Source: Nannocystales bacterium (lineage in GTDB: Bacteria; Myxococcota_A; Polyangia; Nannocystales; Nannocystaceae). Taken from it: a DNA stretch of 42,026 bases. The notes beneath the pieces are model-generated. The model was not told the origin of the DNA. It did not search any database and was given only the letters and a program-made list of their open reading frames with translations. Below, one piece after another: positions 2,890 through 32,730 of this stretch (position 1 is its first letter; each line of letters starts with the position of its first letter). Both the position numbers and the translations under genes were made by a program. Location of the stretch: positions 1-42,026 of the forward strand of contig JBOEGF010000050.1 in NCBI GenBank assembly GCA_050633305.1, written 5' to 3'.

Positions 2890-3349
2890 GGGTACGGTTC
2901 CTTCGCGTAGGCCACGGGCTCATCGCGACCTTCACTTCCTTGTGCCCGCTGCCGACGACCCGTTACACGCTCACCGCCTGTTTTGTTCGGCGATTGAGAA
3001 CGGCTTGCCACCGCCATCGACACGTGGCGGAACGCGGTGGCAACACTCCGCTCCGCTGCTCCTCACCGAACTTCGGCTCCGCACATCCCGACTCCGCGAC
3101 CGGTCGACTTCAGGGCTGAGCTTCGGGCGATGGGCTCCGGCAACTCCAGGAGCGGCTCTCCAACCGCCGCGTCGAGTGCTCGAAATCGCCCGGCGACATC
3201 CATCTGACATCAAAAAAGTCACCGAGGCGCAGGACATGTAGGCAGATCAGCGATAACCTGCTCCGGAGTTCACCGCGATGGTTGGGAGCCGCCGCCCCTG
3301 AACTCTGGGATTGGGGAACAAGATGAAGCGCAGCGCCATGGAGAACTCA

Positions 3350-5050
3350 ATGATTCGGATCGGTTGGACAACAACGTCTCTGCTGGCAGTGATGCTCGGT
3401 ACAGGCTGCGCTACATCCGAAGAGCCCGACCTCAACGGTACGGGAACCGAAACCGGCTCCGTGACCAAGGGCGACGACCCCGACGATCCCAGCGATGGCG
3501 AAGGTTCCACGGGTGGAGCGAGCGACTCCGACGAGACGGCTGGCGACAGCTCGACCGGCGACGACTCCGAGGGCGGCGAGTCCTCCGGCGAGCCCACGAC
3601 CGACAACGGCATCGACGACTACATCATCGGCCTGGGGACCCTGGAAACTCCAGCCGCCGACGTCGATGAGGGTGTCGCCAGCGCTCCCTTCATCGATGGT
3701 GACTACGCCTGCACCACCACGAACCTGCTCGAGACCAAGCAGTTCGACAAGATCGTGGCCTTCGCAGCCAACTCCGGAACCCTCTACCCCGGAGCCACCA
3801 TCGGCGGCACCACGCTCTCCGACGGCACCCTCACCCCCAAGGTGTTCGACCGAGCGCCCCTGACCTTCTCCGCATCGCTCGAAGGCGTCCTCGACGGTGA
3901 CGTCTCCGCCACCATGGAGAGCCCCACGCTCAGCGAGTTCCGCGAAGCGATGGCCGGCATCCTCGACGCCAACGTCATCGGCAACACCCCTGCCAACATC
4001 GCCTACGAGATGAGCGAGGTTCACAGCTCCGAGCAGCTCAGCCTCGCCCTCGGCCTCGACGTCTCGTGGATGAGCGGCGACGTCTCGGCCAGCATGGAGT
4101 TCGACCAGCAGGATCGAAACAGCCGCTACCTCGTCAACTTCACCCAGGCCTACTACACCGTCGACATCGACGCCCCTGCACGACCCAGCGACTTCCTCGA
4201 CCCCTCCGTCACCCTCGAGGACGTCGAGCAAACTCTGCAAGGCGAACCTCCTGCATACGTCTCCTCGGTGACCTACGGCCGCATCGTCTACTTCGCCGTC
4301 ACCTCGAACTTCTCCAGTGAGGAGCTCAAGGCCGCACTCGACTTTGGCTTCTCCACCGGAGCCGTCGACGTCGACGGCAGCGTCTCCCTGACCCACTCCG
4401 AGGTCCTCTCCGAGTCGCACATCACCGCCTTCATCCTCGGCGGTGACGGCAACGTCGCCGTTCAAGCCATCCAGGGCGCCGAGGGCATCGCCGACTTCCT
4501 GCAGAGTGGCGGCACCTACTCCCCCGAGTCGCCCGGAGCTCCCATCGCCTACAAGATGGCGTACCTCGCCGACAACAGCCCAGCCGGCTTCTCGCTGACC
4601 ACCGACTACGAAGTCCGCGAGTGCACTCGCGTCACCCAGAACGTCCAACTCACCCTGCAGAACATCTACGTCGTCAACGACGGAGGTGACTCTGGCGACG
4701 ACCTCGAGGTCTACGGCTGGATTCGCGGCTGGGACGAGCAATCCAACGCCTACCCGCTCATGGAGCGCGACGACGACCAGTACGTGACCATCGGCATGAG
4801 TCAGCAGTGGCCCCAAACCGGCACCATCGAGACGCAGATCCTCCCGGTGGTTCCCCAGCCCGACCACAGCTTCACGATTTCGATCAACCTCCGCGAATCC
4901 GATGGGTTCCTCAATGGTGATGACAACCTTGGGGACCACGAGGTCGTGATCGACTACGAGGATGGGTGGCGCGACGATGCCTTTGTCTACAACCTGGCGG
5001 ACGGGGACCAGCAGGTTGAGGTTCGGATGGCGTTTACGCCTGTGCCGTAG
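3350..5050 (+). CDS. Thiol-activated cytolysin family (CDC-like) lipoprotein
   Basis: Motifs LYPGA, RAPLTFS, FTQAYYTVDID.P..PSDF, PAYVSSVTYGR and YSPESPGAPIAY match perfringolysin-type domains 1-3; GGAG RBS before ATG 3350; LGTGC lipobox. Confidence 0.85.
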   Translation: MIRIGWTTTSLLAVMLGTGCATSEEPDLNGTGTETGSVTKGDDPDDPSDGEGSTGGASDSDETAGDSSTGDDSEGGESSGEPTTDNGIDDYIIGLGTLETPAADVDEGVASAPFIDGDYACTTTNLLETKQFDKIVAFAANSGTLYPGATIGGTTLSDGTLTPKVFDRAPLTFSASLEGVLDGDVSATMESPTLSEFREAMAGILDANVIGNTPANIAYEMSEVHSSEQLSLALGLDVSWMSGDVSASMEFDQQDRNSRYLVNFTQAYYTVDIDAPARPSDFLDPSVTLEDVEQTLQGEPPAYVSSVTYGRIVYFAVTSNFSSEELKAALDFGFSTGAVDVDGSVSLTHSEVLSESHITAFILGGDGNVAVQAIQGAEGIADFLQSGGTYSPESPGAPIAYKMAYLADNSPAGFSLTTDYEVRECTRVTQNVQLTLQNIYVVNDGGDSGDDLEVYGWIRGWDEQSNAYPLMERDDDQYVTIGMSQQWPQTGTIETQILPVVPQPDHSFTISINLRESDGFLNGDDNLGDHEVVIDYEDGWRDDAFVYNLADGDQQVEVRMAFTPVP

Positions 5051-5105: not shown

Positions 5106-5247
5106 GCGTCTTCGCTCGCGCGTAGGGCTCGCTGTCGGAGGGACACAGCCGAAGCTGCCGAGCTGTGGCCCACTGATGCCCTTGGCCGGCCCGCACTTGG
5201 GCCACGTGGCGACCCACCCGCTGCGCAAGCGCTTTCGCGCGTGGCGT

Positions 5248-5382
5248 TGCGCGAGTGGCCCGGCATGCGCATCAGCAGCGCCGTGCAGTGGCCAGCTGTC
5301 ATGCTCAGGCGCGCTACGTTCCGCGGACCACCCAGGACAGCGACGCCCTCGCCCTGGTGCGCGAGCACTAGCCTGCGTTCCG
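5248..5382 (+). mobile_element. Fragment of the IS91-family transposase 5' end
   Basis: Near-identical to 12215-12350; encodes VARHAHQQRRAVASCHAQARYVPRTTQDSDALALVREH* (TGG changed to TAG). Confidence 0.9.
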
Positions 5383-11348: not shown

Positions 11349-11502
11349 CCGTGGGTCCGTTCCAGAGCGCAGCCCGACCCCAAGCCTCGCCAGTGCCAGC
11401 GCGCCAGCCCCCGCGAGACGTAGAGTATCGATTCGAACGGTCGGAACCTAGGTCATTGCACGGGCACAACCCGGGCGAGCAGCCCAAGTCGCATCCAAGA
11501 CC

Positions 11503-12100
11503 TTAGAGTTTCCGACGGAGTTCCTCGATCTCGGAGCGCGCGGGGTGGGACACACCAAACAAAGCCGTGAACGCCACATCTGCCGCATCGCACGTCGTCC
11601 CAGCCCGAACGCCATCGCCCGCGTTGACGTGCACCCGACATCGTTCCAACACCGCTCGGGCAACGATATCCGCTCGGCCAACCCCCTCGGCCAGCACCAC
11701 CGATCGGTCCAGCAGCCGTAATGCCGCCTCTGGTTTGTCCTGCCAACTGCGAATCCTCGCGAGGTTCATGAAGACGTCCGTCAGATCGATGTCGACGTTT
11801 TCGGACGCCTCGAGGATCGCTTGGGCGCGTTGGAGGTCGGCTTCGGCGAGCGCGAAGTTGCGGAGGATCGCGTGCATCCCTCCCCGAGTCTTCAGTGCCC
11901 GAGCGACTCGGAGTCCCCCCTCGCCGTGCGCTCGCACCAGCACACGAACCGCGCGGTCGGCATGCGTAAGAGCCGTTTCGAGCTCCCCCGCCCCACTCGC
12001 CACGTGCATCAGGATCCTCAGCGGCTCGGCCAACTCCGGAGCGCTCACCGGGTGCTCGGAAGTTCGGCGTGCCTCATCCGCCCGGGTCACCCCGGCCCTC
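11503..12100 (-). pseudogene. 5'-truncated TPR region (kinase-TPR C-terminus type)
   Basis: TPR-like helices (AEADLQRAQAILE, LFGVSHP); upstream runs into the IS with no native start. Confidence 0.6.
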
Positions 12101-12214
12101 GCGGACACCCGACCCTCCACCTGGAGGCGAGGACCGAAGCCCTCGGCGCACGAACAACCAACACGAACGGACGAGCAAACGCTCGCCTTCCGCAGACTCC
12201 GGACTTTCCCCCGA

Positions 12215-13942
12215 TGCGCGAGTGGCCCGGTTTGCGCATCAGCAGCGCCGTGCAGTGGCCAGCTGTCATGCTCAGGCGCGCTACGTTCCCCGGACCCACC
12301 CAGGACAGCGACGCCCTCGCCCTGGTGCGCGAGCACTGGCCTGCATTCCGTGAGCGCCTCGAGGAGCGAGCCGGCTCGCTGCCTCGGTTTGTGCGGGACG
12401 AGCTCGAAGGGTTCATCACTTGCGGAGACTTCGAGCACGGCTTCTTGTTGGCGCAGTGCCGCCGCTGCGGCGACAGCCTGCGTGTCCCGTTTGCCTGCAA
12501 AAGCCGCGACATCTGCCCCTCGTGCATGGGCCGGCGCATGGCCGAGACCGCCGCGCTCCTGGTCGAGCATCGTCTGCCGGCGGTGCCGTGGCGGCAATGG
12601 GTGCTGAGCTTCGAGGGCCCGATGGCGGTCCGGCTGGGCTACAACCGGCGGCTGCTCGGGCGGTGTGTCAGTGGTTTGCCAAGCGGGTGATGCAGACGCT
12701 TCGGCAGCAGAGCAAACGGGAGCATCGCTTGCGCAGCAGCAGCAAGCTGCACCCCGGAGTGCTCATCGTGGTTCAACGTTTTCGCAGCGACCTGGGCTTG
12801 TTCGTGCATCTGCATGCGCTGGTCACCGACGGCTGCTTCGAGGCGCCGGCGGTGGCGGACGAGGCGGCGGTGTTCAGGCCGGCCGATGGCCTGTGCGAGC
12901 AGGACCTGTTGCGGACGCTGCAGCGCTTGCACGGCGACCTCGGTGAGCACCTCGACGACGCCGGCGATGGCGAACCTCTCGACGAAGCGCTCGTGGCCTG
13001 CGTCCAGCTCGGCTTGCCCCTGCGTGCTCTCGGACCGCCGCCCTGCGAGCCCCGGCCCGCCTCGCCGATGCTCGTCCGCGGCTTCGGCATGCAGCTGCAT
13101 GCCGCCGTCACCGTCGACGGCCGAGACCGCAAGCGCCTCGAGCGAGTGTGCCGTTATCTCCTCCGGCCGCCGTTTGCCTTCGACGCCGTGCAGCGGACCG
13201 CCGACGGACAGGTTCGGGTCCACTTCAAGAAGCCCAACCGCTTCGGGGCCACCTACGCCCAGATGACCCCGCACACCTTCCTCGCCCGGCTGTGTGCGCT
13301 CGTCCCCCCGCCCAGGGCCCACACGGTTCTGTACTACGGGGTCTTGTCGGCCCACCACACACTGCGTTCGGCGGTGGTGCCTCGCGCTGAGGAACCTGCG
13401 CTCCAGCCCAAGCAGCTCGCGCTGTTTGTCCCTCGCGGACACGTCGAGTTCCCGGGCACCACAACCTTGCTCGAGCCCCAGCTGCGTGATGCTGCTCCGT
13501 CTCGCCTGTCCTGGATGACGCTTCTCGCCCGCGTCTTTCGCTTCGACATCTCCGCGTGCGCTCGCTGTCGCGGGCCCATACGGGTCACTCGCTTCGTCAC
13601 CACCCCCGAGGACATCGCCGCCGAACTTCACGGTGCTCCGCCACCCCCGTGTCCGCCTGCGCCCGGACAACTCCTGCTCTTCTCGGCTCTGCCCTCAACG
13701 CGCTTGGCTCTGCTCCTGGATGCGCGCCCCTTCGCCCCGCGCTCGTACCGGCGTGCCTGCAGTTTGGCCCCGCTCGCTCCCCGCTCCCCTTCGGGCCCGC
13801 TTTCCCCCCCGACGCCTCCGCTCTCCCAGGCTCACCCCCAATCCACACCCGGCCCCAGCCCCGCTCCGCAGCGACCGCCCTCGCCGCCGGCCAAACCTAC
13901 TCCTCCAATCCTGCTTCTTCCCTGTTCATTTCGCTTAAACGC
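12215..13942 (+). mobile_element. IS91/ISCR-family rolling-circle element (copy 1); left end undefined, right end is putative oriIS
   Basis: Transposase plus ~245 bp pyrimidine-rich 3' region ending TTCATTTCGCTTAAACGC; right boundary defined by six other copies. Confidence 0.9.
12222..13697 (+). pseudogene. IS91-family Y2 HUH transposase with two compensating frameshifts and a lost stop codon
   Basis: Zn-binding CRRC...CKSRDICPSC, HUH motif HLHALVTDG, RLERVCRYLLRPP, YYGVLS; +1 near 12296 (vs 5248 copy), -1 near 12663 (vs 24080 relic); TCA at 13695 where copies 3, 5 and 7 have TGA. Confidence 0.9.
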
Positions 13943-15530
13943 GCGCACCAGCGTCTTTGCCCTGTCGATCTGCCTCCTCCTGTGCGGATGCCGTGACGAA
14001 CCCAGCGACGAGACCGCCGAGGACGAAGCCGGCCTCGATCTCAGCATCCTCGACGCGCCGCCCGACCCACGTTGGCTCGACGCGCCCGCGGACGTTGTGG
14101 CCGGCGGCGTCGAGTTCATCGACCCGGATGGTGCGCTCGAAGGTCTCGAACTGAGCATCACCTCTCGGCCCGTCGAGGGCCTCGTCGGGGGCGTCGCGGG
14201 CTGGTCGATCGAGCCCTCTGGCGAGCTCGACGACATCATCTACGCCCGCTTTCCCCTACCCGACGCTCGGAACCCCGGCGAACCCCTCGTCTTGTGGACG
14301 CAGGCCGACGACGGCTGGTGGACGCAGTCCGTCGGCATCGTTTCCGATGATGGCCAGTCGGCCGTCGCCGCGAGGATCCACTTCTCCGACCAAGCGCTCG
14401 TCAGCCGAGACGCCGCCCGCGAGGCGTTCGTCTCCGGCACCTATTGCAACGGTGAGCAAGCCACCGGCGACGTCTTCAAGGACAATGAGAAGAACCGGAG
14501 TGACCTCAGCGAGTCCGCAATCAACATGCCCATCGCACCTCCAGACGACCGGCCGACGCATGCGTCGATGACCGAGGATCTCACCAACATCTCGCTGACC
14601 CCTGCGGCCGAGTGGGTCGTCTTCAAGAACGAGGAGCGTGCCGGGCCCAGCGAGGCGTGCTGCTGGGAGGGCAACGCATGCTCCTACTCCGGAGAGGCCG
14701 GCTATGAGGACGAAGACTACTTCGGTGATCCTGCGATCGCCGAGCCGCTTCGCCGCCTGGGTGAGCGCGTCCGACCCCTCAGTTGCGGCTCGCTGAAGTT
14801 GGGGGTCTCGGAGATGTTCGACACCGGAACCGCGAAGCGACCCGGCGGTGAGCACTCCGCCAACTCCCTCCACTACGAGGGCCGCGCCATCGACCTCTTC
14901 CTGCTTACAACCGACCCCACCTCCTGGTCGACCCAGTGCGGAGACGATGACCTACGCCGGGGCCGATACGCGCTTGGCCTCAGCCGCCTCGCGCAACTCA
15001 CCGCCGAATCCCGCGACGACCCGACCGCCGACTCTGGATTTGGCTTCGTGAAGTACGAGGTCTTCTCCAAAAACCGCGCCAACAACCACATCCACGCCAG
15101 CGTCCCCAAGACCCACGTCGAGCCTCTCCCCCCCAACACCTTCGAGGCCAGCGTCGAGCTCCGCGGCGAGTCGCTCTCCATGTCTTCCACCGACATGATT
15201 CGAGGCGAGCGCCCCGACGGGACCATGACCCTCACCAGCACCGACTTCGTCGACGACGCCTGGCTCACCGTCACCCTCGTCCTGCCCAACCCCGAAGCCA
15301 ACAGCGTCTTCGAGCTCAGCGGTATGGAGGCCCCCACCCTCGAGGTCGCGCGCGGCGGCGAGACCTCCTACGCCGCGAGCGGAACGCTGGTGTTCGCCCA
15401 GGTCCTGCCGTTTGCCAACAAGAACTACCTCACCACCACCGACGGCACGTTCAACGCCGAGCTCGAGGACGGTGCGGGAAGCGTGACCGGCCGCTTCAGC
15501 GTGGACGACTTGGTCTTCTGGGACCTGTAG
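13943..15530 (+). CDS. Hedgehog-N (Hh/DD-peptidase) domain lipoprotein lacking its own start, fused in frame to the transposase
   Basis: LLCGC lipobox; VFKNEE, LKLGVSEMFD, HSANSLHYEGRAIDL, GFGFVKYE and HIHASV parallel Shh IFKDEE, VKLRVTEGWD, HSEESLHYEGRAVDI, GFDWVYYE and HIHCSV. Confidence 0.85.
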
Positions 15531-15542
15531 CGGTCCTACCGC

Positions 15543-16166
15543 TCAACGCGTCTCGCGGTACTCGGTGCAGGTCCCGGCTTCTTGCGCCTGCTTCATCAGC
15601 GGGCCGAGTCGTTCTGCCCAACGATCGGGATCGGCGACGTAGGCCGCCGTCTTGCCGTCACCCGAGACGCTGATCGTGTAGTCGAGCCAGCGGTCTTGCG
15701 CCGCCGCATCTTCGAGGGAGCGGCCCGGCGGCGGCTGGCCGAGCGTGGCGGCGTCTTCCACCTGCCGCAAGAACCGCTCTGCATCCTTGGCCGGCAACCG
15801 CCCCACGCAATCCGAGCCTTGAACCTCCGAACCGCCCGTCGATCCCTCGGCGTTGATCAGGAACCCGCCGTCCGTCGCGATCTCGTACGTCGTCCAGAAG
15901 CCCTCATCGGCCGCAAGGTCTTGCGCCGCGATCGTGAGCCTCGGCCAACCCAGGTCCGGTGTTGGTCGGCGAGCAGGAGTCGGCTCAGCTGGCGACGCGG
16001 ACGAAGACAGCTCAGTCGAACTGCGAGCGGGCTCGCTTGGACCCGCCACAGCCGGGCGACTCGGTGCCTCGGCGAACTGCGGCTCCGACCGCGCCGCGCA
16101 GGCGACGAGCAGGGCGGCCGTGAATCCGAGTGCCCAACGCCAGCGCGAATGGACAAGCGGAGTCAC
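15543..16166 (-). CDS. Lipoprotein
   Basis: LVAC lipobox. Confidence 0.65.
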   Translation of the reverse strand: MTPLVHSRWRWALGFTAALLVACAARSEPQFAEAPSRPAVAGPSEPARSSTELSSSASPAEPTPARRPTPDLGWPRLTIAAQDLAADEGFWTTYEIATDGGFLINAEGSTGGSEVQGSDCVGRLPAKDAERFLRQVEDAATLGQPPPGRSLEDAAAQDRWLDYTISVSGDGKTAAYVADPDRWAERLGPLMKQAQEAGTCTEYRETR

Positions 16167-16170
16167 GACC

Positions 16171-17271
16171 TTAGCGTACTCGACCGTCTGTCAGAGGTCT
16201 CAAACAGCCCCTCCCGGGATTGCCACGGCCGGTCTCAACCGGCTCCTCGGGAATACGCCACTGCTGGGCACCCTTGACCGCTTGGGCGAACCAGACCGCG
16301 GGGACCACGACGACGGTCCCGCAGCTTTTGACGCGGTGCGAGACGTCGCACCCGTCGGTGCACTCCGTGTGTCGGTAACAGCCATCCTTGACCTCGACGG
16401 GATAGCGGGTCTGCCGATCTCCTTTCACGATGCCAACGAGAGTGTCACCCGCCCTTGAGAAAATGGGGGCGCCGCTCGAGTGGTTGAAGACCGTCGCCTT
16501 AAACCGCATGCGATCGTCGTCGTCCGGGTGTTCGCAAAGTTCGCCGAGTCCGTGCTTCAGAGGAAGACCAAGCGGGTGGTGTGAGATCTGATACTCATGG
16601 CCTGGCTTGAACTTTCTGGATGGGACGAGTTTTCCCCGGTACGGATGAGCATCCTCCGGCGGAGGGGTCTTCAGCACGACCCAGTCCGCTGCGCCGGCCC
16701 CAACCGCGTAGACGTAGAGTGGCCGCACCTGCACGTCCTCGGCGGTCGGTGGGCGCCCAGACTGCATCTGGTAGCCGAGTACCACCGATGCGTCCGTTTG
16801 GTGTCCTCTCTCGCACGACGCCTGGTCACATTCCTGTATGCAGTGCCGCGCAGTTACGACAACGCCGTCCGGGAGGAGGACGCCCCCGCAAAATGACACC
16901 GCGGGCTGTTCGGCAAGCTGACGCAGCACATCGCCTTCGCAGATCTTCTTGTCGCCCAGGCGATCCTGCAGAGTAGGCCATGGGTCGTCTTCGTTCGTGG
17001 GCGGAACCACTCGTATGGAGACGGTCGCGTACAGCGGATCAGGTTCCATCAGCGGCAACTGGTCGAACGAAATTCCCGAGGCCTCCGCCCGATGGAATGT
17101 GATCAGCTCGGGGTCGTCTGGTGGAGGTGCTCTTCTCGGTGGGTCCGGGCAGGCGGGTGGGGTTGACCCGGTCCTCCGCAGGGCCCGGCGAGCGTTACGG
17201 GCTTGCCCAGCCGCCGGTGAACATCCGAAAACACAGATCAACCCGGCGAGTGCTAAGGGCCCTGTACGCAT
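16171..17271 (-). CDS. Trypsin-like serine protease lipoprotein
   Basis: VFGC lipobox; FCGGVLL..VVVTARHC, ADWVVL and HSSGAPIF triad motifs. Confidence 0.8.
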   Translation of the reverse strand: MRTGPLALAGLICVFGCSPAAGQARNARRALRRTGSTPPACPDPPRRAPPPDDPELITFHRAEASGISFDQLPLMEPDPLYATVSIRVVPPTNEDDPWPTLQDRLGDKKICEGDVLRQLAEQPAVSFCGGVLLPDGVVVTARHCIQECDQASCERGHQTDASVVLGYQMQSGRPPTAEDVQVRPLYVYAVGAGAADWVVLKTPPPEDAHPYRGKLVPSRKFKPGHEYQISHHPLGLPLKHGLGELCEHPDDDDRMRFKATVFNHSSGAPIFSRAGDTLVGIVKGDRQTRYPVEVKDGCYRHTECTDGCDVSHRVKSCGTVVVVPAVWFAQAVKGAQQWRIPEEPVETGRGNPGRGCLRPLTDGRVR

Positions 17272-17690
17272 GGCTCCGTGCAGGGAGTAAGGTCGCCCAC
17301 AGCCGCCCGCCTCGTCACCTTCACCCGTAGCGTCCACCCGGGAAATTCCCCGGTCGTGTCGATGTAGTGGTCGTGAGACTCGTCGTTGGTCTCCGGGATC
17401 TTGTAGCCCAAGACCAAGTCCTCGACGTTGTGGCCTGGGTACGGGTCCTTGATCTTGACGTAGACCTTTAGCTTCGCGCCGGGGTCGTTGATTTCGATGA
17501 CGAGGCAAGACACCGTCCCTGCGGCACTGGAAGAATGCACCAGCCGATCCGTGGCTCCGCTCGCGCGCTTCACCTGAAGCTTGACGAAGATATTGTCTCC
17601 CCCGGTTGGGGCGTTGAGCACTTTCGGGACGCAGTCATCAGGCAGGTTGGTCCCATAGTGAAATCCGACTTTTCCGATCTGTGTAGACAT
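17253..17690 (-). CDS. Hypothetical protein
   Basis: AGGAG RBS; lies between the sigma factor and protease genes. Confidence 0.6.
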   Translation of the reverse strand: MSTQIGKVGFHYGTNLPDDCVPKVLNAPTGGDNIFVKLQVKRASGATDRLVHSSSAAGTVSCLVIEINDPGAKLKVYVKIKDPYPGHNVEDLVLGYKIPETNDESHDHYIDTTGEFPGWTLRVKVTRRAAVGDLTPCTEPCVQGP

Positions 17691-17732: not shown

Positions 17733-18344
17733 TCAGCGTAATTCGACGCGAATTTTCTCCGCCCACCCATCGAGGTCTCCTGCGGTGCTTTCCACGACCC
17801 CCGGCTCGTCGGCGACTTCCACGATCGCAGCCTTGAGCCGTGCCTTCCCGCTCCGGATGCGGCTGCGAGCGGTGTCCTCGGGGATTTCCATGACCTCACC
17901 GATCTGGCCGGCCGTCAGCTTCTCCCAGTAGTACAGCTCCAGGATGACCTGGTCCTTCATGGGGATTCTCCTCAGCGCCCTCAGCAGCACCTGCTGCTCG
18001 CGTTTCGCCTGAAGAATGGTCGAAGGCCCCGCGCCGAGGTCCTCGATCGAGAACGCGCCGAGGTCCTCGTTTCGGCGATCTTTCACCTTCGCGCGATAAT
18101 GCTCGCGCAACAGGTTGTGGGCGATCGCGAAGAGGAATGTCCGAAAACTCGAGCGACCCTCAAAACGCTCGGCAGCGTCTAGACAGCGCACAAACGTGTT
18201 TTGGACCAGTTCTGCGACGTCGCCGTCCGTCTTGTTGACGAAGAATCTACCGACCGGTTCGAAGTGCCGCTGGAAGAGTTCGTCGCCGGCCCGCCGATCT
18301 CCTGTTTTCCACGATTCGAGGAGCTCCTCGTCGCTGTTGACCAC
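17733..18344 (-). CDS. ECF RNA polymerase sigma factor (myxobacterial type)
   Basis: DEELL..W..GD..AGDELF, RFEGRSSFRTFLFAIAHN, LELYYWE, TARSRIR. Confidence 0.9.
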   Translation of the reverse strand: MVNSDEELLESWKTGDRRAGDELFQRHFEPVGRFFVNKTDGDVAELVQNTFVRCLDAAERFEGRSSFRTFLFAIAHNLLREHYRAKVKDRRNEDLGAFSIEDLGAGPSTILQAKREQQVLLRALRRIPMKDQVILELYYWEKLTAGQIGEVMEIPEDTARSRIRSGKARLKAAIVEVADEPGVVESTAGDLDGWAEKIRVELR

Positions 18345-18352
18345 CACGTCGC

Positions 18353-21118
18353 GTGGCACTATGCCATGCGGCTGGCCAGCTTGCGCGGAAAACCGCGGCC
18401 TGGGATGACGGTTTGAACGATCCGGAACACCAACCCATTGCGGTGAAACAGGACAGCACGCGTTCGGACTCTGGCTTGTCGCCGGAGGCTCCGCCACAGG
18501 ACGTCGGCTCCGAAGCGATGAAGGCTGCGATCGCCAGCGATCTGTTCGGAGACATTGCCGCGCCTCTTCGCGTGGGCCGATACGACGTCCGCGAGGTGCT
18601 TGGTCAGGGCGGCATGGGAGTCGTCTACTCGGCCTGGGATGAATCGCTCGGACGAGCGGTTGCGCTCAAACTCCTCTCGGCCACATCCGGCACTTCCGAC
18701 CGGCGTCGCGCACGAATGATGCGGGAGGCTCAAGCGCTCGCGAAGCTGTCGCACCCCAACGTGGTGCAGATCTACGAGGTCGGCACCCACGACGATGACG
18801 TGTTCGTTGCGATGGAACTCGTCGATGGGCTGACACTGCGGGAGTGGGCGCGGCAGTCCGACCGCTCGACGCGGGAGATTGAAGGCGTGTTCACGCAGGC
18901 CGCAAGTGGCCTCAGTGCGGCGCACCAGCGCGACTTGGTTCACCGCGACTTCAAACCCAGCAACGTGATCGTGGGCTCGGACGGGCGGGTTCGCGTTGTC
19001 GATTTTGGCCTGGCGTACGGCCCGGGGCTCGGGACCGAGTCGGCAGAGCCCAGCGGTACGTCGAGCACCTCTGCCAAGCTCACCCACACGGGCGCGGTCC
19101 TGGGAACTCCCGCATACATGGCACCGGAACAGTTCCGGGGCGAGGTGGCGGACGCACGCGCTGACCAATTCTCCTTTTGCGTTTCGCTGTTCGAGGCGCT
19201 GACCGGGGGTCGGCCCTATCGATACGCGGACCTGCGCGACGACCCCGCGGCCGCGAAGGTCGACGGCTGGGCCTCGGTCCCGCGGATGTGGCGGAGTGCG
19301 CTTCGCCGCGGCCTGAGCATCGGCCCGGCCGAGCGATGGCCAACGGTCGATGCGCTGGTCGACGCGATGAACCGCGGACGAGCTCGCTGGCGACGGGGGC
19401 CCTGGCTCGCCGCTGGAGGAGTCGGGCTCGTGCTCTGGGCGCCCTGGTCGGGTGGGCCGAGCGATCCGTGCGAGGCCGTTCCGGTGGCGCCCGCCGGCTG
19501 GAACGAGGAGCGAGCGAGCAGCCTCGCCGCGTCGTTTACCGCCACCGGAGCACCGTTCGCGGCGGACGTGTGGGCCACGGCGCGCAGCAACATCGAGTCT
19601 TTCGCTGCTGAGTGGACCGAGACGCGAAATGAGGTCTGCCGCGTCCAGCCCTCCGCGGACACGCTTGCGTGCCTTGACCGGGCACAGACCGTTCTCTCCG
19701 CCGTGCTGGCCGAGTACCAGCAAGTCAACGCTACGACGGTTGGCAGCATCCATCCGCTCTCCGCACTGCTTGAGTCACCCGCGTCGTGTTTGGATCCCGA
19801 GAAGGGAGCCTTCTCCTCGGAGGTCAACCCCGATCAGCTTGCCCTCCTCGCTCGCGCAAGGGCGGAACTCGCTGCGACCAGGCCCGACGCTGCCCTTGCA
19901 ACGCTCGATCGCCTCGCCGAGGACCCCGATCTGAAAGACACAGACGCGATCGCGGAGGTGTTCCGCCTCCGAAGCCAGGGACACGCGACCCGGGCCGACA
20001 CCGATGCAGCGCTTGCCGACCTGGCCCGCAGTCTCCAGGAGGCGAGCAGCCCCGTAGTCCGGTCGCGTAGTCTCGTCGCGTGGGTTCGCCTGCTCGCCGA
20101 CCAAGAGCGGACGGAGTCCGCCGTCGATGGGCTCAGGCTGCTGGAGCCCGCAGTCTCGGCTGAGAGCCCGGCAAGCCTTCGTGCCGACGTTCTCGAGCTT
20201 CGAGCGCGGCTTCATGCTTCGACGCTAAACCAAACGATGACTCTCCTGGAGGATGCGCTTCGACTCCGCATTTCGGCCGGCGACGAGCGACGAGCGACGC
20301 AGACTCGGTTGGCCATCGCGAACGGACTCTCCCAAGCCGAGGATCCGGATTCCATTGCTCGGGGGGAGGCATTGCTCCGAGATGTCATGGCTGAGCGGCG
20401 GCTCTCCCTTGGCGACCAACACCCCGAATACGCCGTCTCGCTCTCCAACCTCGGTGCGTACGTCGCGGACGTTCGCCTCGACTGGGACGAGGCCCAACAA
20501 CTCCTGGCGCAGGCCGATCGAATCGCGGGTCGCTCCCTCGGCACCGACGCCCCTGCCCGCGCGCGCACGCGCCTCAAGCTCGGCGAGGTTCTGATTCGCC
20601 TCGGCCGTCTGGACGAGGCGGAAACCATGCTCGACTCCGCCTGGGCACGCCTGCAGTCCCTGCCCGAGACCCACACCGATCACATTGCGGGCCGTACCCT
20701 CCTCGCGTCGTTCACCCTCAACCGGGGGGACTTCGCGACGTCGCTCGAGCACCACCGGGTCCTCGAAACGCTGGCCCCCGACGACGTCTTCATCCAGCAG
20801 AACATCGCCTACCTCAGCGGCCAGCTGGGGAACGCGACGGATGCGGAGACCGCGGTAGCGCGGGCGCGCGCCCTGGCCACCGTGTCACCCGACCTTGACC
20901 CGCCGACACGCGCGCTGCTGGAACTCTACTTCCGGACCATCGACGCACAGGTGGCGCGACTGCGAGACCAGAGCGACGCGGCCCGCACGATCCTCAAGGA
21001 GATCGAAGCCGCCGCGGCAGCATACGAGGTCCCCGATGACCGGCCTGACCTCGCCGCGCAACTCGAGCTGCTTCAGCCGGAGATCGAGACCGTTCGGGAT
21101 GAACTGTCCGCCCCCTAG
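18353..21118 (+). CDS. Ser/Thr protein kinase with TM segment and TPR repeats (true start may be later, e.g. 18518)
   Basis: GQGGMGVVY, VALK, HRDFKPSN, DFGLA, GTPAYMAPE. Confidence 0.9.
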   Translation: MALCHAAGQLARKTAAWDDGLNDPEHQPIAVKQDSTRSDSGLSPEAPPQDVGSEAMKAAIASDLFGDIAAPLRVGRYDVREVLGQGGMGVVYSAWDESLGRAVALKLLSATSGTSDRRRARMMREAQALAKLSHPNVVQIYEVGTHDDDVFVAMELVDGLTLREWARQSDRSTREIEGVFTQAASGLSAAHQRDLVHRDFKPSNVIVGSDGRVRVVDFGLAYGPGLGTESAEPSGTSSTSAKLTHTGAVLGTPAYMAPEQFRGEVADARADQFSFCVSLFEALTGGRPYRYADLRDDPAAAKVDGWASVPRMWRSALRRGLSIGPAERWPTVDALVDAMNRGRARWRRGPWLAAGGVGLVLWAPWSGGPSDPCEAVPVAPAGWNEERASSLAASFTATGAPFAADVWATARSNIESFAAEWTETRNEVCRVQPSADTLACLDRAQTVLSAVLAEYQQVNATTVGSIHPLSALLESPASCLDPEKGAFSSEVNPDQLALLARARAELAATRPDAALATLDRLAEDPDLKDTDAIAEVFRLRSQGHATRADTDAALADLARSLQEASSPVVRSRSLVAWVRLLADQERTESAVDGLRLLEPAVSAESPASLRADVLELRARLHASTLNQTMTLLEDALRLRISAGDERRATQTRLAIANGLSQAEDPDSIARGEALLRDVMAERRLSLGDQHPEYAVSLSNLGAYVADVRLDWDEAQQLLAQADRIAGRSLGTDAPARARTRLKLGEVLIRLGRLDEAETMLDSAWARLQSLPETHTDHIAGRTLLASFTLNRGDFATSLEHHRVLETLAPDDVFIQQNIAYLSGQLGNATDAETAVARARALATVSPDLDPPTRALLELYFRTIDAQVARLRDQSDAARTILKEIEAAAAAYEVPDDRPDLAAQLELLQPEIETVRDELSAP

Positions 21119-21985: not shown

Positions 21986-21986
<1 letters not shown>
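21115..21986 (-). pseudogene. Cys-rich lipoprotein with one frameshift near 21895
   Basis: MRQIALALLVLLVPAC start overlaps the gyrB stop (TAATG); the Cys-rich body is in another frame. Confidence 0.7.
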
Positions 21987-24047
<2,061 letters not shown>

Positions 24048-27595: not shown

Positions 27596-27996
27596 TGCGC
27601 TCGCTGTCGCGGGCCCATGCGGGTCACTCGCTTCGTCACCACCCCCGAGGACATCGCCGCCGAACTTCACGGTGCTCGGCCACCCCCGCGTCCGCCTGCG
27701 CCCGGACAACTCCTGCTCTTCTCCGCTCTGCCCTGAACGCGCTTGGCTCTGCTCCTGGATGCGCGCCCCTTCGCCCCGCGCTCGTACCGGCGTGCCTGCA
27801 GATTGGCCCCGCTCGCTCCCCGCTCCCCTTCGGGCCCGCTTTCCCCCCGACGCCTCCGCTCTCCCTGGCTCAGCCCCAATCCACACCCGGCCCCAGGCCC
27901 GCTCCGCAGCGACCGCCCTCGCCCCCGGCCAACCCTACTCCTCCAATCCTGCTTTTTCCCAGTTCTGCTTTTTCCCAGTTCATTTCGCTTAAACGC
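27596..27996 (+). repeat. IS91 3'-end copy 3 (~401 bp) with a 16-bp tandem duplication
   Basis: Matches ~13557-13942; ctgctttttcccagtt at 27949-27964 and 27965-27980. Confidence 0.95.
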
Positions 27997-30129: not shown

Positions 30130-30276
30130 CCGCTTCCCCCCCCGACGCCTCCGCTCTCCCAGGCTCAGCCCCAATCCACACCCGGCCCCCAGGCCCGCTC
30201 CGCAGCGACCCCGCACGCCGCCGGCCAACCCTACTCCTCCAATCCTGCTTTTTCCCAGTTCATTTCGCTTAAACGC
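30130..30276 (+). repeat. IS91 3'-end copy 4 (~147 bp)
   Basis: Matches ~13797-13942. Confidence 0.95.
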
Positions 30277-31589: not shown

Positions 31590-31964
31590 CTACACGCGGC
31601 GAAGAATCGCGCTGTCGCGAACGCCAGCTCGCGCAAACCCGCCGTCGAACGAGTGCGTACTCTCGCTCTCTCCGACCGCTAGGAAACCGCCGGGCAACAG
31701 CGCCTGATGCATGCTCGCCAGCGCGCGTGGATGAACCTCGGGGCGCAGGTAGATCATCACGTTGCGGAACAAGACCAAGTCGCGGTCCTCGGGGGGAGGG
31801 TCGGCCAGCACGTCTTGCACAGAGAAGCGCACACAGCTGCGCAGGAGCGGGCCCACGTTCCACTGGCCATCGACGATCGTGCCGTAGCGGTTTTGATACT
31901 CAGCGGGAATGTTGGCGACCCGCGCCAGCGCGTAGGATCCCGCCGCCGCGTACTCGATGGCGTC
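31590..31964 (-). pseudogene. cheR: C-terminal fragment of a CheR-type methyltransferase
   Basis: A..GSY, VRFSVQDVL, DLVLFRNVMIYL, LLPGGFLAVGESE. Confidence 0.85.
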
Positions 31965-32730
31965 CCGTTTGCCCTCGACGCCGTGCAGCGCACCGCCGAC
32001 GGACAGGTTCGGGTCCACTTCAAGAAGCCCAACCGCTTCGGGGCCACCTACGCCCAGATGACCCTGCACACCTTCCTCGCCCCGCTGTGTGCCCTCGTCC
32101 CTCCGCCCAGGGCCCACACGGTTCTGTACTACGGGGTCTTGTCGGGCCACCACACACTGCGTTCGGCGGTGGTGCCTCGCGCTGAGGAGCCTGCGCCCGA
32201 GCCCAAGCAGCTCGCGCTGTTTGTCCCTCGCGGACACGTCGAGTTCCCGGGCACCACAACCTTGCTCGAGCCCCAGCTGCGTGATGCTGCTCCGTCTCGC
32301 CTGTCCTGGATGACGCTCCTCGCCCGCGTCTTTCGCTTCGACATCTCCGCGTGCGCTCGCTGTCGCGGGCCCATGCGGGTCACTCGCTTCGTCACCAACC
32401 CCGAGGACATCGCCGCCGAACTTCACGGTGCTCGGCCACCCCCGCGTCCGCCTGCGCCCGGACAACTCCTGCTCTTCTCGGCTCTGCCCTGAGCGCGCTT
32501 GGCTCTGCTCCTGGATGCGCGCCCCTTCGCCCCGCGCTCGTACCGGCGTGCCTGCAGTTTGGCCCCGCTCGCCCCCGCTCCCCTTCGGGCCCGCTTTCCC
32601 CCCCGACGCCTCCGCTCTCCCAGGCTCACCCCCAATCCACACCCGGCCCCAGCCCCGCTCCGCAGCGACCCCGCTCGCCCAACCCTACTCCTCCAATCCT
32701 GCTTTTTCCCAGTTCATTTCGCTTAAACGC
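31965..32730 (+). repeat. IS91 3'-end copy 5 (~766 bp, includes transposase C-terminus with TGA)
   Basis: Matches ~13170-13942. Confidence 0.95.

Follow-up and report, generated by a model that had tools for sequence, protein, structure and literature searches.

Bacterial Hedgehog domains (BacHh) have been known since 2018 (Roelink 2018, PMC6027127). According to that paper, they are more than 50% identical to ShhN and carry the Hedgehog (Hh) domain at the C-terminus, which in the rhizobial ones lies behind three transmembrane segments; for the rhizobial BacHh, neighbouring peptidoglycan enzymes have been reported (Jägers and Roelink 2021, PMC8052667). Both sources treat the enzymatic nature of the Hedgehog-N domain and its origin in animals as open questions (PMC6027127, PMC8052667). 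Here we analyse a divergent Hedgehog-type gene in a 42,026-nucleotide stretch of DNA from a Nannocystales bacterium (assembly GCA_050633305.1, contig JBOEGF010000050.1, forward strand), hereafter the window, which corresponds to the entire 42-kb contig. Positions 13943-15530 (+) of the window encode a 531-residue, three-domain lipoprotein, in which the Hedgehog-type domain lies between a β-sandwich with a conserved His-Phe-Ser (H-F-S) motif and a β-barrel.

Other described systems are relevant to the β-sandwich. The bacterial GAIN-like MAIN domains cleave at H-F|S, as determined by Edman degradation, and the resulting fragments stay together (Brogan and Rudner, bioRxiv 10.64898/2026.05.12.724683). 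In the account of the same preprint, nearly all MAIN proteins consist of a signal peptide, a cargo, the MAIN domain and, at the C-terminus, a wall anchor, and they are enriched in Bacillota (bioRxiv 10.64898/2026.05.12.724683). Among eukaryotic proteins, PIDD is described as cleaving at HF|S after each ZU5 domain, and NLRP1 and CARD8 at SF|S, with the fragments remaining associated (PMC3210808).

The central domain of the window protein (residue 1 being the codon at 13935) is a genuine but divergent Hedgehog-type LAS domain, a conclusion that we hold with near certainty. A single-sequence search of the PDB up to an expect value (E) of 10 returned 22 matches, all of which were Hedgehog N domains (best E 0.041). 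When a family profile built from eight members was searched against the PDB up to the same threshold, all 25 matches were Hedgehog, with Shh best at E 3.6e-15, and no M15 chain was among them. The initial annotation, made on the letters alone, had proposed a comparison of the Pfam profiles HH_signal (PF01085) and Peptidase_M15: HH_signal was matched by 8/8 family members (best E 5.6e-12), and Peptidase_M15_4 by one of the eight, at E 0.04.

The structural comparisons, also proposed there, gave the same picture. The AlphaFold model, built on an alignment of eight proteins (A1, with 46% mean column identity over the whole length), had a mean predicted local distance difference test (pLDDT) value of 79.1 and a predicted template modelling score (pTM) of 0.67. 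In the Foldseek search of this model against the PDB, ranks 1 to 35 were all Hedgehog N domains (target-normalised template modelling score 0.67-0.82, best E 3.3e-7); 37 matches had E <= 0.001, and MepA first appeared at rank 45 (E 0.025). VIA-align, run against 48,161 chains, superposed residues 178-393 of the model on Shh-N with Z 18.1, a root-mean-square deviation of 1.7 Å over 147/150 residues and 29% identity. Hedgehog structures scored Z 16.9-18.1, against 8.6 for VanX, 7.3 for MepA, 6.6 for LdcB, 6.1 for the Streptomyces albus DD-peptidase (1lbu) and 5.5 for LysB4. Since the profile matches in the PDB were all Hedgehog and Shh-N reached Z 18.1 against 8.6 for VanX, the best matches are not ordinary M15 peptidases. 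The span first assigned to the domain (14613-15107, residues 227-391) covers its catalytic core, but by structure the full domain is larger, extending over about residues 178-393 (14466-15113).

We then considered the residues of the active site in an alignment of 18 sequences (A2), comprising the Hedgehog-lipoprotein family, larger relatives, BacHh-like proteins and three animal-type Hedgehogs (P0142 and P0075 with Hint). The collinear Shh-N motifs listed in the initial annotation are all there, in the order given and in the forward frame. Six residues, H307, H313, D320, E375, H385 and H387, are invariant in 18/18 sequences, animal Hedgehogs included, and these comprise the zinc ligands and the catalytic Glu that had been picked out in HYEGRAID, HIH and KYE. 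They correspond to H135, H141, D148, E177, H181 and H183 of mouse Shh, where H135/H181 are described as the stacking pair, H141, D148 and H183 as the zinc ligands, and E177 as the general base (PMC6027127, PMC8052667). Because the catalytic set is complete, we consider the domain quite probably an active zinc peptidase, judging from its sequence.

The six Hedgehog calcium ligands of Shh are given as E90, E91, D96, E127, D130 and D132 (PMC8052667). The acidic motifs FKNEE and SEMFD, read in the initial annotation as a calcium site, are present, and with D261 they keep five of the six ligands, while the D132 position is not acidic in the window protein. Relative to Hedgehog there are five insertions (residues 235-256, 298-303, 322-343, 359-366 and 377-384); the Cys-containing insertions noted earlier are those at 235-256 and 322-343. 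The coordinates of these and the other features are collected in the table.

Features of the Hedgehog-domain lipoprotein gene and of the insertion sequence (IS) copies around it (window positions)
Feature	Position	Strand	Details and basis
Hedgehog-domain lipoprotein gene	13943..15530	+	Spans the lost start codon's final base through the stop codon (TAG, 15528-15530); sequence and translation
Remainder of the signal peptide, lipobox L-C-G-C	13944..13991	+	Cys19 at 13989-13991
Acidic low-confidence linker, residues 20-50	13992..14084	+	pLDDT <50 for residues 1-32
N-terminal domain, residues 51-158, ZU5 / GAIN-B-like β-sandwich	14085..14408	+	Domain-only model, pLDDT 92.8
His149-Phe150-Ser151, predicted self-cleavage site (Phe|Ser)	14379..14387	+	Conservation and structural alignment
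Hedgehog-N-type LAS zinc-peptidase domain, residues 178-393	14466..15113	+	VIA-align, Foldseek, profile against PDB, alignment A2
F230-K-N-E233-E234 motif	14622-14636	+	Sequence and A2
Calcium-site acidic residues E233, E234, D261, E293, D296	14631..14822	+	Shh E90, E91, D96, E127, D130 (A2)
E293 and D296 of S-E-M-F-D	14811-14822	+	Sequence and A2
Catalytic set	14853..15095	+	H307 (14853), H313 (14871), D320 (14892), E375 (15057), H385 (15087), H387 (15093)
H313 and D320 of H-Y-E-G-R-A-I-D	14871-14894	+	Sequence and A2
E375 of K-Y-E	15057-15059	+	Sequence and A2
H385-I-H387	15087-15095	+	Sequence and A2
C-terminal domain, residues 398-531, soluble 8-stranded up-and-down β-barrel	15126..15527	+	Structural alignment
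IS91-family insertion element (Y2 transposase), full copy	12212..13942	+	Right end ...TTCATTTCGCTTAAACGC stops at 13942; Pfam Y2_Tnp E 2.4e-20
IS fragments (right-end)	23711-24047, 27596-27965, 30130-30276, 31965-32730, 38148-38287, 39768-40105	+	Truncated copies
IS left-end piece, 139-bp	5245-5382		
gyrB open frame	21986-23719	-	577 residues, without N-terminal ATPase domain; begins at IS right-end fragment

Compared with BacHh, the window domain has the same Hedgehog-N fold, H-x6-D ... H-x-H zinc motif, catalytic Glu, stacking His pair and acidic calcium motifs, and both are secreted or periplasmic and patchily distributed. The differences are these: its identity to animal Hedgehogs ranges from 29% (structural alignment) to 32-33% (A2) rather than exceeding 50%, it is central, with about 138 residues following it, in a lipoprotein where it stands between the H-F-S β-sandwich and the β-barrel, and it has five insertions, one lost calcium ligand and a separate clade in the tree. 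Animal Shh/Ihh/Dhh-N (PF01085) domains are its best match both by structure and by sequence, and in both cases the protein is lipid-tethered. No Hint domain was matched in the window protein (Pfam, E <= 1), whereas the animal controls P0142 and P0075 showed HH_signal and Hint; the N-terminal Patched-binding peptide of animal Hedgehogs is missing as well. With the LAS peptidoglycan peptidases (VanX, MepA, VanY/LdcB, the Streptomyces albus DD-peptidase and the phage endolysin LysB4) the domain has in common the core fold and the zinc ligands (Z 5.5-8.6), and probably the chemistry. These score far lower than Hedgehog, however, and are without the Hedgehog calcium site.

The initial annotation did not include the N-terminal domain with its His-Phe-Ser motif, the C-terminal β-barrel, or the missing start codon and the abutting IS91-like element. 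By VIA-align, the N-terminal domain was most similar to ankyrin ZU5 domains (Z 7.4, 7.1 and 6.7) and to the GAIN domain of CD97 (6.9 and 6.6), and then to CELSR1 GAIN (6.3), the ZU5 part of CARD8 (5.9), BAI3 GAIN (5.3) and NLRP1 (FIIND; 5.3 and 4.3). ZU5, GAIN and FIIND entries make up seven of the ten top rows, with Z from 7.4 to 5.9. In the ESM Atlas, ZU5 is carried by 30% of a cluster scoring 0.82, a weak lead that we take as a hint only.

A set of 24 proteins with this domain was collected using a local hidden Markov model (E <= 5e-20; six weaker matches and one fragment were left out). Among them H-F-S occurs in 22 and H-x-S in 23, across different cargo architectures, the exceptions being H-L-S in P0025 and D-F-A in P0009; in alignment A3, H-F-S is one of very few nearly invariant motifs. 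A lipobox was found by regular expression in 17/24 of these proteins, and five more have, by eye, a hydrophobic stretch ending in Cys. A search for longer proteins carrying this domain gave at least six, none of them new. The cargo behind the H-F-S domain is not always a Hedgehog domain: it is PD40 in P0022, DUF922 in P0025 and DUF4215 in P0026.

The position of the motif was compared with known cleavage sites. H149-F150-S151 lies in the turn that precedes the last β-strand, the place of the conserved H-x-(S/T) in self-cleaving sandwiches of the GAIN-B, MAIN and ZU5 kinds. Eight of the 50 listed VIA-align rows end at model residue 115, which is Phe150, and they include the N-fragments of NLRP1 (1105-1212) and GPR56 (249-382). 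Cleavage is described before Ser1213 in NLRP1 (PMC3210808) and between L382 and T383 in GPR56 (bioRxiv 10.1101/2022.08.11.503187; human numbering, the structure being that of mouse). Since the alignments end there with NLRP1 F1212 and GPR56 L382, Phe150 sits at the place of the P1 residue of self-cleaving domains, as located by the ends of the alignment ranges and not by residue-level superposition. A similar placement of CD97 S531 fell on residue 151 in the whole-protein alignment and about 2 residues away in the domain-only one, and was dropped. On the motif, the fold and this position, self-cleavage at Phe150|Ser151, leaving fragments held by strand 151-157 and releasable, appears slightly better than an even bet.

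The domain is similar to MAIN in its apparent GAIN-B-like β-sandwich, in the conserved H-F-S and in its occurrence in envelope-anchored secreted proteins with an enzymatic cargo, for which release of the cargo has been proposed. With the ZU5 and ZU5-UPA (FIIND) domains of PIDD, NLRP1 and CARD8 it appears to have in common the β-sandwich fold (Z 4.3-7.4) and the cleavage position at the end of the ZU5 part, if cleavage occurs. Those proteins are cytosolic and eukaryotic, while the window protein has no Pfam ZU5 match and no UPA or death-fold domain after it. If self-cleavage holds, the likeness to animal Hedgehog would extend to maturation, both proteins being matured by self-cleavage through an N-O or N-S acyl shift. 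The differences would then be that the predicted self-cleaving domain of the window protein has another fold and precedes the Hh domain rather than following it, and that the lipid is the acyl-glyceryl Cys of bacterial lipoproteins and is found on the other fragment.

At the N-terminus, the lipobox Cys19 is invariant in 8/8 sequences of A1 (as read from the alignment), in agreement with the lipoprotein nature claimed initially. At the other end, the nearest folds of the C-terminal domain are an LpqH orthologue (Z 9.5), the HtaA CR domain (7.6) and the TbpB C-lobe (7.2), and further 8-stranded barrels match it at Z 6-8 (VIA-align). It had no Pfam match; in the ESM Atlas, DUF6252 is carried by 28% of a cluster scoring 0.85, again a weak lead and a hint only. 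The soluble 8-stranded barrels of surface lipoproteins (LpqH, TbpB C-lobe, HtaA CR, NHBA and HpuA) are alike in fold (Z 5.4-9.5) and in the lipoprotein setting, but have no sequence similarity to it (3-17% identity), and topology alone may be what they share. On the model, a binding module is the probable role of this domain.

Taken together, we moderately favour an explanation in which a lipid-anchored, self-cleaving tether holds and releases a calcium-modulated Hedgehog-type peptidase, this copy of the gene being disrupted by an IS. The lipobox Cys anchors the protein to a membrane, as its sequence and conservation show, and a flexible acidic linker comes after it. In the ZU5/GAIN-B-like β-sandwich, an N-O acyl shift would break the protein's own chain at the Phe150-Ser151 bond, as happens in GAIN, FIIND/ZU5 and MAIN; β-strand 151-157 would then keep both pieces together without a covalent link, and the C-terminal one would come free on unfolding or pulling. 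The released piece would be a LAS zinc peptidase of the Hedgehog-N type with a complete catalytic set (zinc ligands H313/D320/H387, general base E375, stacking pair H307/H385) and most of the calcium site, and the 8-stranded β-barrel behind it may bind a substrate or ligand. The most likely substrate would be a peptide bond of peptidoglycan, in the cell's own wall or in that of prey or competitors. In the window genome, the IS91-family element ends two bases into the start codon.

To place this protein among its relatives, we searched 5.8 billion clustered proteins, which returned eight, one of them the window's own truncated gene call; six of the eight carry a precomputed PF01085 match. A profile search of 1.84 billion representatives gave 596 matches at E <= 0.001, 129 at E <= 1e-10 and 13 at E <= 1e-30. 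A Pfam scan covered 83 of 147 newly listed proteins, most of which carry HH_signal. Some Hh domains are fused to other enzymes: P0020 has two HH_signal domains with Amidase_2, Glucosaminidase, PG_binding_1 and DUF2272, and the fusions include YkuD_2 in P0068, Phage_lysozyme in P0085 and Pesticin in P0088. None of the six proteins tried matched an NCBIfam family.

A quick maximum-likelihood tree was obtained from 91 of 148 Hh-domain matches, namely those covering the core, a filter outside which the animal proteins with Hint fell. Ten family sequences and seven N-domain proteins of about 800 residues form one clade (support 95 in the Shimodaira-Hasegawa-like approximate likelihood ratio test), and BacHh-like sequences form a separate 35-row clade; this is the phylogeny that the initial annotation had called for. 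P0013-P0019 (794-887 residues) have a lipobox, the H-F-S domain and the Hh domain, and then a long Gly-rich C-terminal region instead of the β-barrel.

The three-domain architecture is rare, with about 10 sequences. It occurs in full once in its own 11.0-Mb genome. Among 400 genomes of the class, eight had any match, and full-length ones were found only in G000 and G180, which belong to the same genus. The genome contig scan gave 28 loci, one of them full-length, and the metagenome contig scan 80 kept loci, again with one full-length, on only 5.4 kb.

The reading frame of the gene deserves a separate description. A single 1036-codon open frame at 12420-15530 (+) holds two unrelated things. Over its first 505 residues the translation matches IS91-type Y2 transposases (Pfam Y2_Tnp, E 2.4e-20); from 13935 it reads L-N-A-R-T-S-V-F-A-L-S-I-C-L-L-L-C-G-C and then continues for 512 residues to the TAG at 15528-15530. 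Upstream, the frame of the Hedgehog-lipoprotein gene stays open into the IS, and the public gene call (P0002) begins at Val55. The closest homologue, P0003 (77% identical), begins M-R-T, and the window reads (G)CGC ACC, R-T, at the same place. Because the IS ends at 13942, is followed by G CGC ACC, and P0003 starts with Met-Arg-Thr, the element has replaced everything up to and including two bases of the start codon. It thus ends exactly at codon 2, and the window copy is therefore without a start codon. The Logan contigs of the best DNA run (X1, word depth about 2-5) do not bridge 13943-13965: in one, the match stops at 13942 and the contig runs on into the flank of another IS copy, and another begins at 13966. 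No RNA run was among those listed as holding the sequence. Since they stop or start at these positions, the IS-gene junction is neither confirmed nor contradicted by independent data.

The IS91-like element has 43 matching places in the genome, among them an 84%-identical copy on contig C40 (covering query 813-2547 of window 11400-14100). Fourteen aligned right-end junctions have ...TTCATTTCGCTTAAACGC in common, and their flanks diverge straight after AAACGC; a Y2 (HUH-type) transposase and multiple copies with a common end agree with the IS91 family. The contig carries one full element and six same-strand right-end fragments, which have the same right terminus and different internal starts. 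Of the seven places in the 11-Mb genome where the 18-base right end recurs exactly, six are in this contig. It may be an ISCR/IS91-style rolling-circle capture array. A full-length gyrB (834-residue frame), 95%-identical to that of the window, lies on contig C15, and the window gyrB is thus a truncated duplicate or a piece from a close strain. Given the several same-strand IS ends and the truncated gyrB, the contig resembles a patchwork, with IS ends lying between segments of other DNA, and at least one such segment is a truncated gene copy.

The points that weigh against the favoured explanation concern each of its parts, and are here considered together with the alternatives. For the central domain, the window protein alone matches HH_signal at E 0.0028 and 17.8 bits, below the cut-off of 22.1; the position of the sixth calcium ligand (D132) is occupied by G304, beside a 6-residue insertion (A2); and the Cys-rich, 22-residue insertion 235-256 is modelled with pLDDT <50. 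That it could be an ordinary M15 enzyme (VanX, VanY or DD-carboxypeptidase), resembling Hedgehog only through the common LAS fold, is already contradicted and scarcely credible: LAS enzymes are found and one member matches Peptidase_M15_4, but Hedgehog Z scores are about twice as high, by sequence only Hedgehog chains were matched, and the Hedgehog-specific calcium motifs F-K-N-E-E and E-x-x-D are present. The domain could also have no catalytic function and serve only for binding, to a partner or a glycan that it does not cleave, in the manner of a 'ligand', the view often taken of Hedgehog in animals. This would suit its five insertions and the fact that neither of the two accounts cited gives a direct demonstration of peptidase activity for a Hedgehog-type domain, be it from animals or from bacteria (PMC6027127, PMC8052667). 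We regard this as improbable, as in A2 neither the zinc ligands nor the general-base Glu nor the two stacking His vary between bacteria and animals. Unless the domain is catalytic, it is difficult to see why bacteria, which have no Patched or Smoothened, should conserve them so well, a point that PMC6027127 makes too. For the peptidase reading, the chances that the substrate is peptidoglycan seem evenly divided, by analogy with the fusions in the sister clade and with LAS enzymes generally; the peptidoglycan-enzyme fusions lie in the BacHh-like clade and not in that of the window family, and the window protein has no peptidoglycan-binding domain.

As regards the N-terminal domain, the structural similarity is moderate, with all Z scores below 8, and the best Foldseek match is an ankyrin ZU5 at E 5.7e-3, with none at E <= 0.001. 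No sequence link to ZU5 or GAIN emerged: Pfam ZU5 (PF00791) had no match in the window at E <= 10, and the domain profile gave only chance-level matches in the PDB (E 0.48-0.95), none of them ZU5 or GAIN. The ankyrin and UNC5b ZU5 domains, which are among the best matches, are not known to cleave. In addition, relatives of about 550 residues with a weak N-domain match are without H-F-S at this position (A2), and the order of the window protein, N-terminal lipid anchor, domain and cargo, runs opposite to that of nearly all MAIN proteins. These results would suit a structural or adhesive β-sandwich in which His-Phe-Ser is a folding motif and no cut occurs, the intact lipid-anchored Hedgehog-type peptidase being the working form, and so would the D-F-A of P0009. 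This alternative appears unlikely, although it deserves consideration, in view of the conservation of H-F-S as the best-conserved motif of the domain across cargos, of the alignment of Phe150 with the chain ends of the cleaved NLRP1 and GPR56 fragments, and of the fact that H-F-S is a proven cleavage site in MAIN domains and PIDD (PMC3210808; bioRxiv 10.64898/2026.05.12.724683). A different alternative concerns this copy and not the family, namely that the locus makes no protein, being a captured and defunct piece of a gene like several others between IS91-like ends. There is no in-frame ATG, GTG or TTG between 13764 and 14098, the IS end abuts the gene, the contig carries the IS right-end fragments described above, and its gyrB is without the ATPase part and begins at one of them. 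A promoter and terminator scan of 13500-15700 found none of either, a result that is uninformative in GC-rich DNA. Against this, the 530 codons that are left form an open frame that can be aligned over its full length with the homologues, every invariant residue is kept, and translation might begin at a rare start (CTG/ATC at 13908-13913) or continue out of the IS frame by read-through. We see this alternative as an even chance; being without a canonical start, the window copy is probably silent or poorly translated, and its expression is somewhat doubtful.

The surroundings of the gene do not add to the favoured explanation either. In a tblastx comparison of window 5001-26000 with 19.9 kb around the orthologue in G180, only the gene itself was shared, and thus no conserved neighbours emerged from the comparison with the one relative having long flanks. 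The flanks differ, with radical SAM, OmpA-like and Na/H exchanger genes in G180 and trypsin-like protease, extracytoplasmic function (ECF) sigma factor and Ser/Thr kinase genes in the window. Convergent with the Hedgehog-domain gene, and starting 12 bases past its stop, is a frame for a 207-residue predicted lipoprotein without Pfam match (15543-16166, -), followed by one for a 445-residue trypsin-like protease (16171-17508, -; Trypsin_2, E 6.7e-7), also convergent; neither was found beside the orthologue in G180. Further on there is a divergent pair formed by an ECF-type sigma factor (17733-18497, -) and a 921-residue Ser/Thr protein kinase with tetratricopeptide repeats (18353-21118, +).

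Elsewhere in the contig, an open frame at 3311-5050 (+), just upstream of the IS left-end piece, matches Thiol_cytolysin (cholesterol-dependent cytolysin family; Pfam, E 3e-49). In the frame at 31590-32642 (-), a CheR methyltransferase domain is confined to the C-terminal third (residues 220-334), the part just left of the IS fragment from 31965; as the rest of the frame runs antisense to that fragment, this could be a further gene cut off where an IS begins. Finally, the frame at 35289-36725 (+) carries DUF4215 and a Kelch motif, DUF4215 being the domain also present in P0026, an H-F-S N-domain protein.

A full-text literature search turned up no published protein that combines a lipid anchor, an H-F-S sandwich, a Hedgehog peptidase and a barrel, which fits the suggestion of the initial annotation that the lipoprotein architecture might be undescribed; on the topic, only Roelink's papers were found, which also document the bacterial Hh homologues that it had mentioned (PMC6027127). 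Nor did a tether of this reversed polarity, anchored through its N-terminal fragment, turn up there or in the main text of the MAIN preprint. In that main text the words lipoprotein, hedgehog and peptidase are absent, while its supplementary domain tables may list such proteins (bioRxiv 10.64898/2026.05.12.724683).

As the window family shows, bacterial Hedgehog-type domains, with 596 matches at E <= 0.001, are far more varied than the dozen near-identical BacHh first described, and for testing the enzymatic nature of the Hedgehog-N domain and the origin of the animal one, its bacterial relatives are the simplest system. With a soluble three-domain protein, the window family is a candidate for a first activity assay and a first structure; as the window copy lost its start codon to the IS91-like element, such work would better use an intact orthologue, for instance P0003. 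That the same N-terminal domain precedes DUF922, PD40 and DUF4215 cargos suggests that Gram-negative bacteria have a family of envelope enzymes released by shear or contact. More tentatively, and with the odds somewhat against it, lipid anchor, H-F-S β-sandwich and cargo could represent a general bacterial release module, a mirror image of MAIN/GAIN, which in this clade delivers a Hedgehog-type calcium/zinc peptidase. If the His-Phe-Ser domain does cut itself, GAIN/MAIN-type tethers would extend to Gram-negative-type lipoproteins, with reversed polarity, and a self-cleaving lipoprotein tether would be a new way of holding and releasing lytic enzymes. Bacteria would then combine three hallmarks of animal Hedgehog maturation, the Hedgehog-N domain, self-cleavage by acyl shift and a lipid tether, using a different self-cleaving fold.

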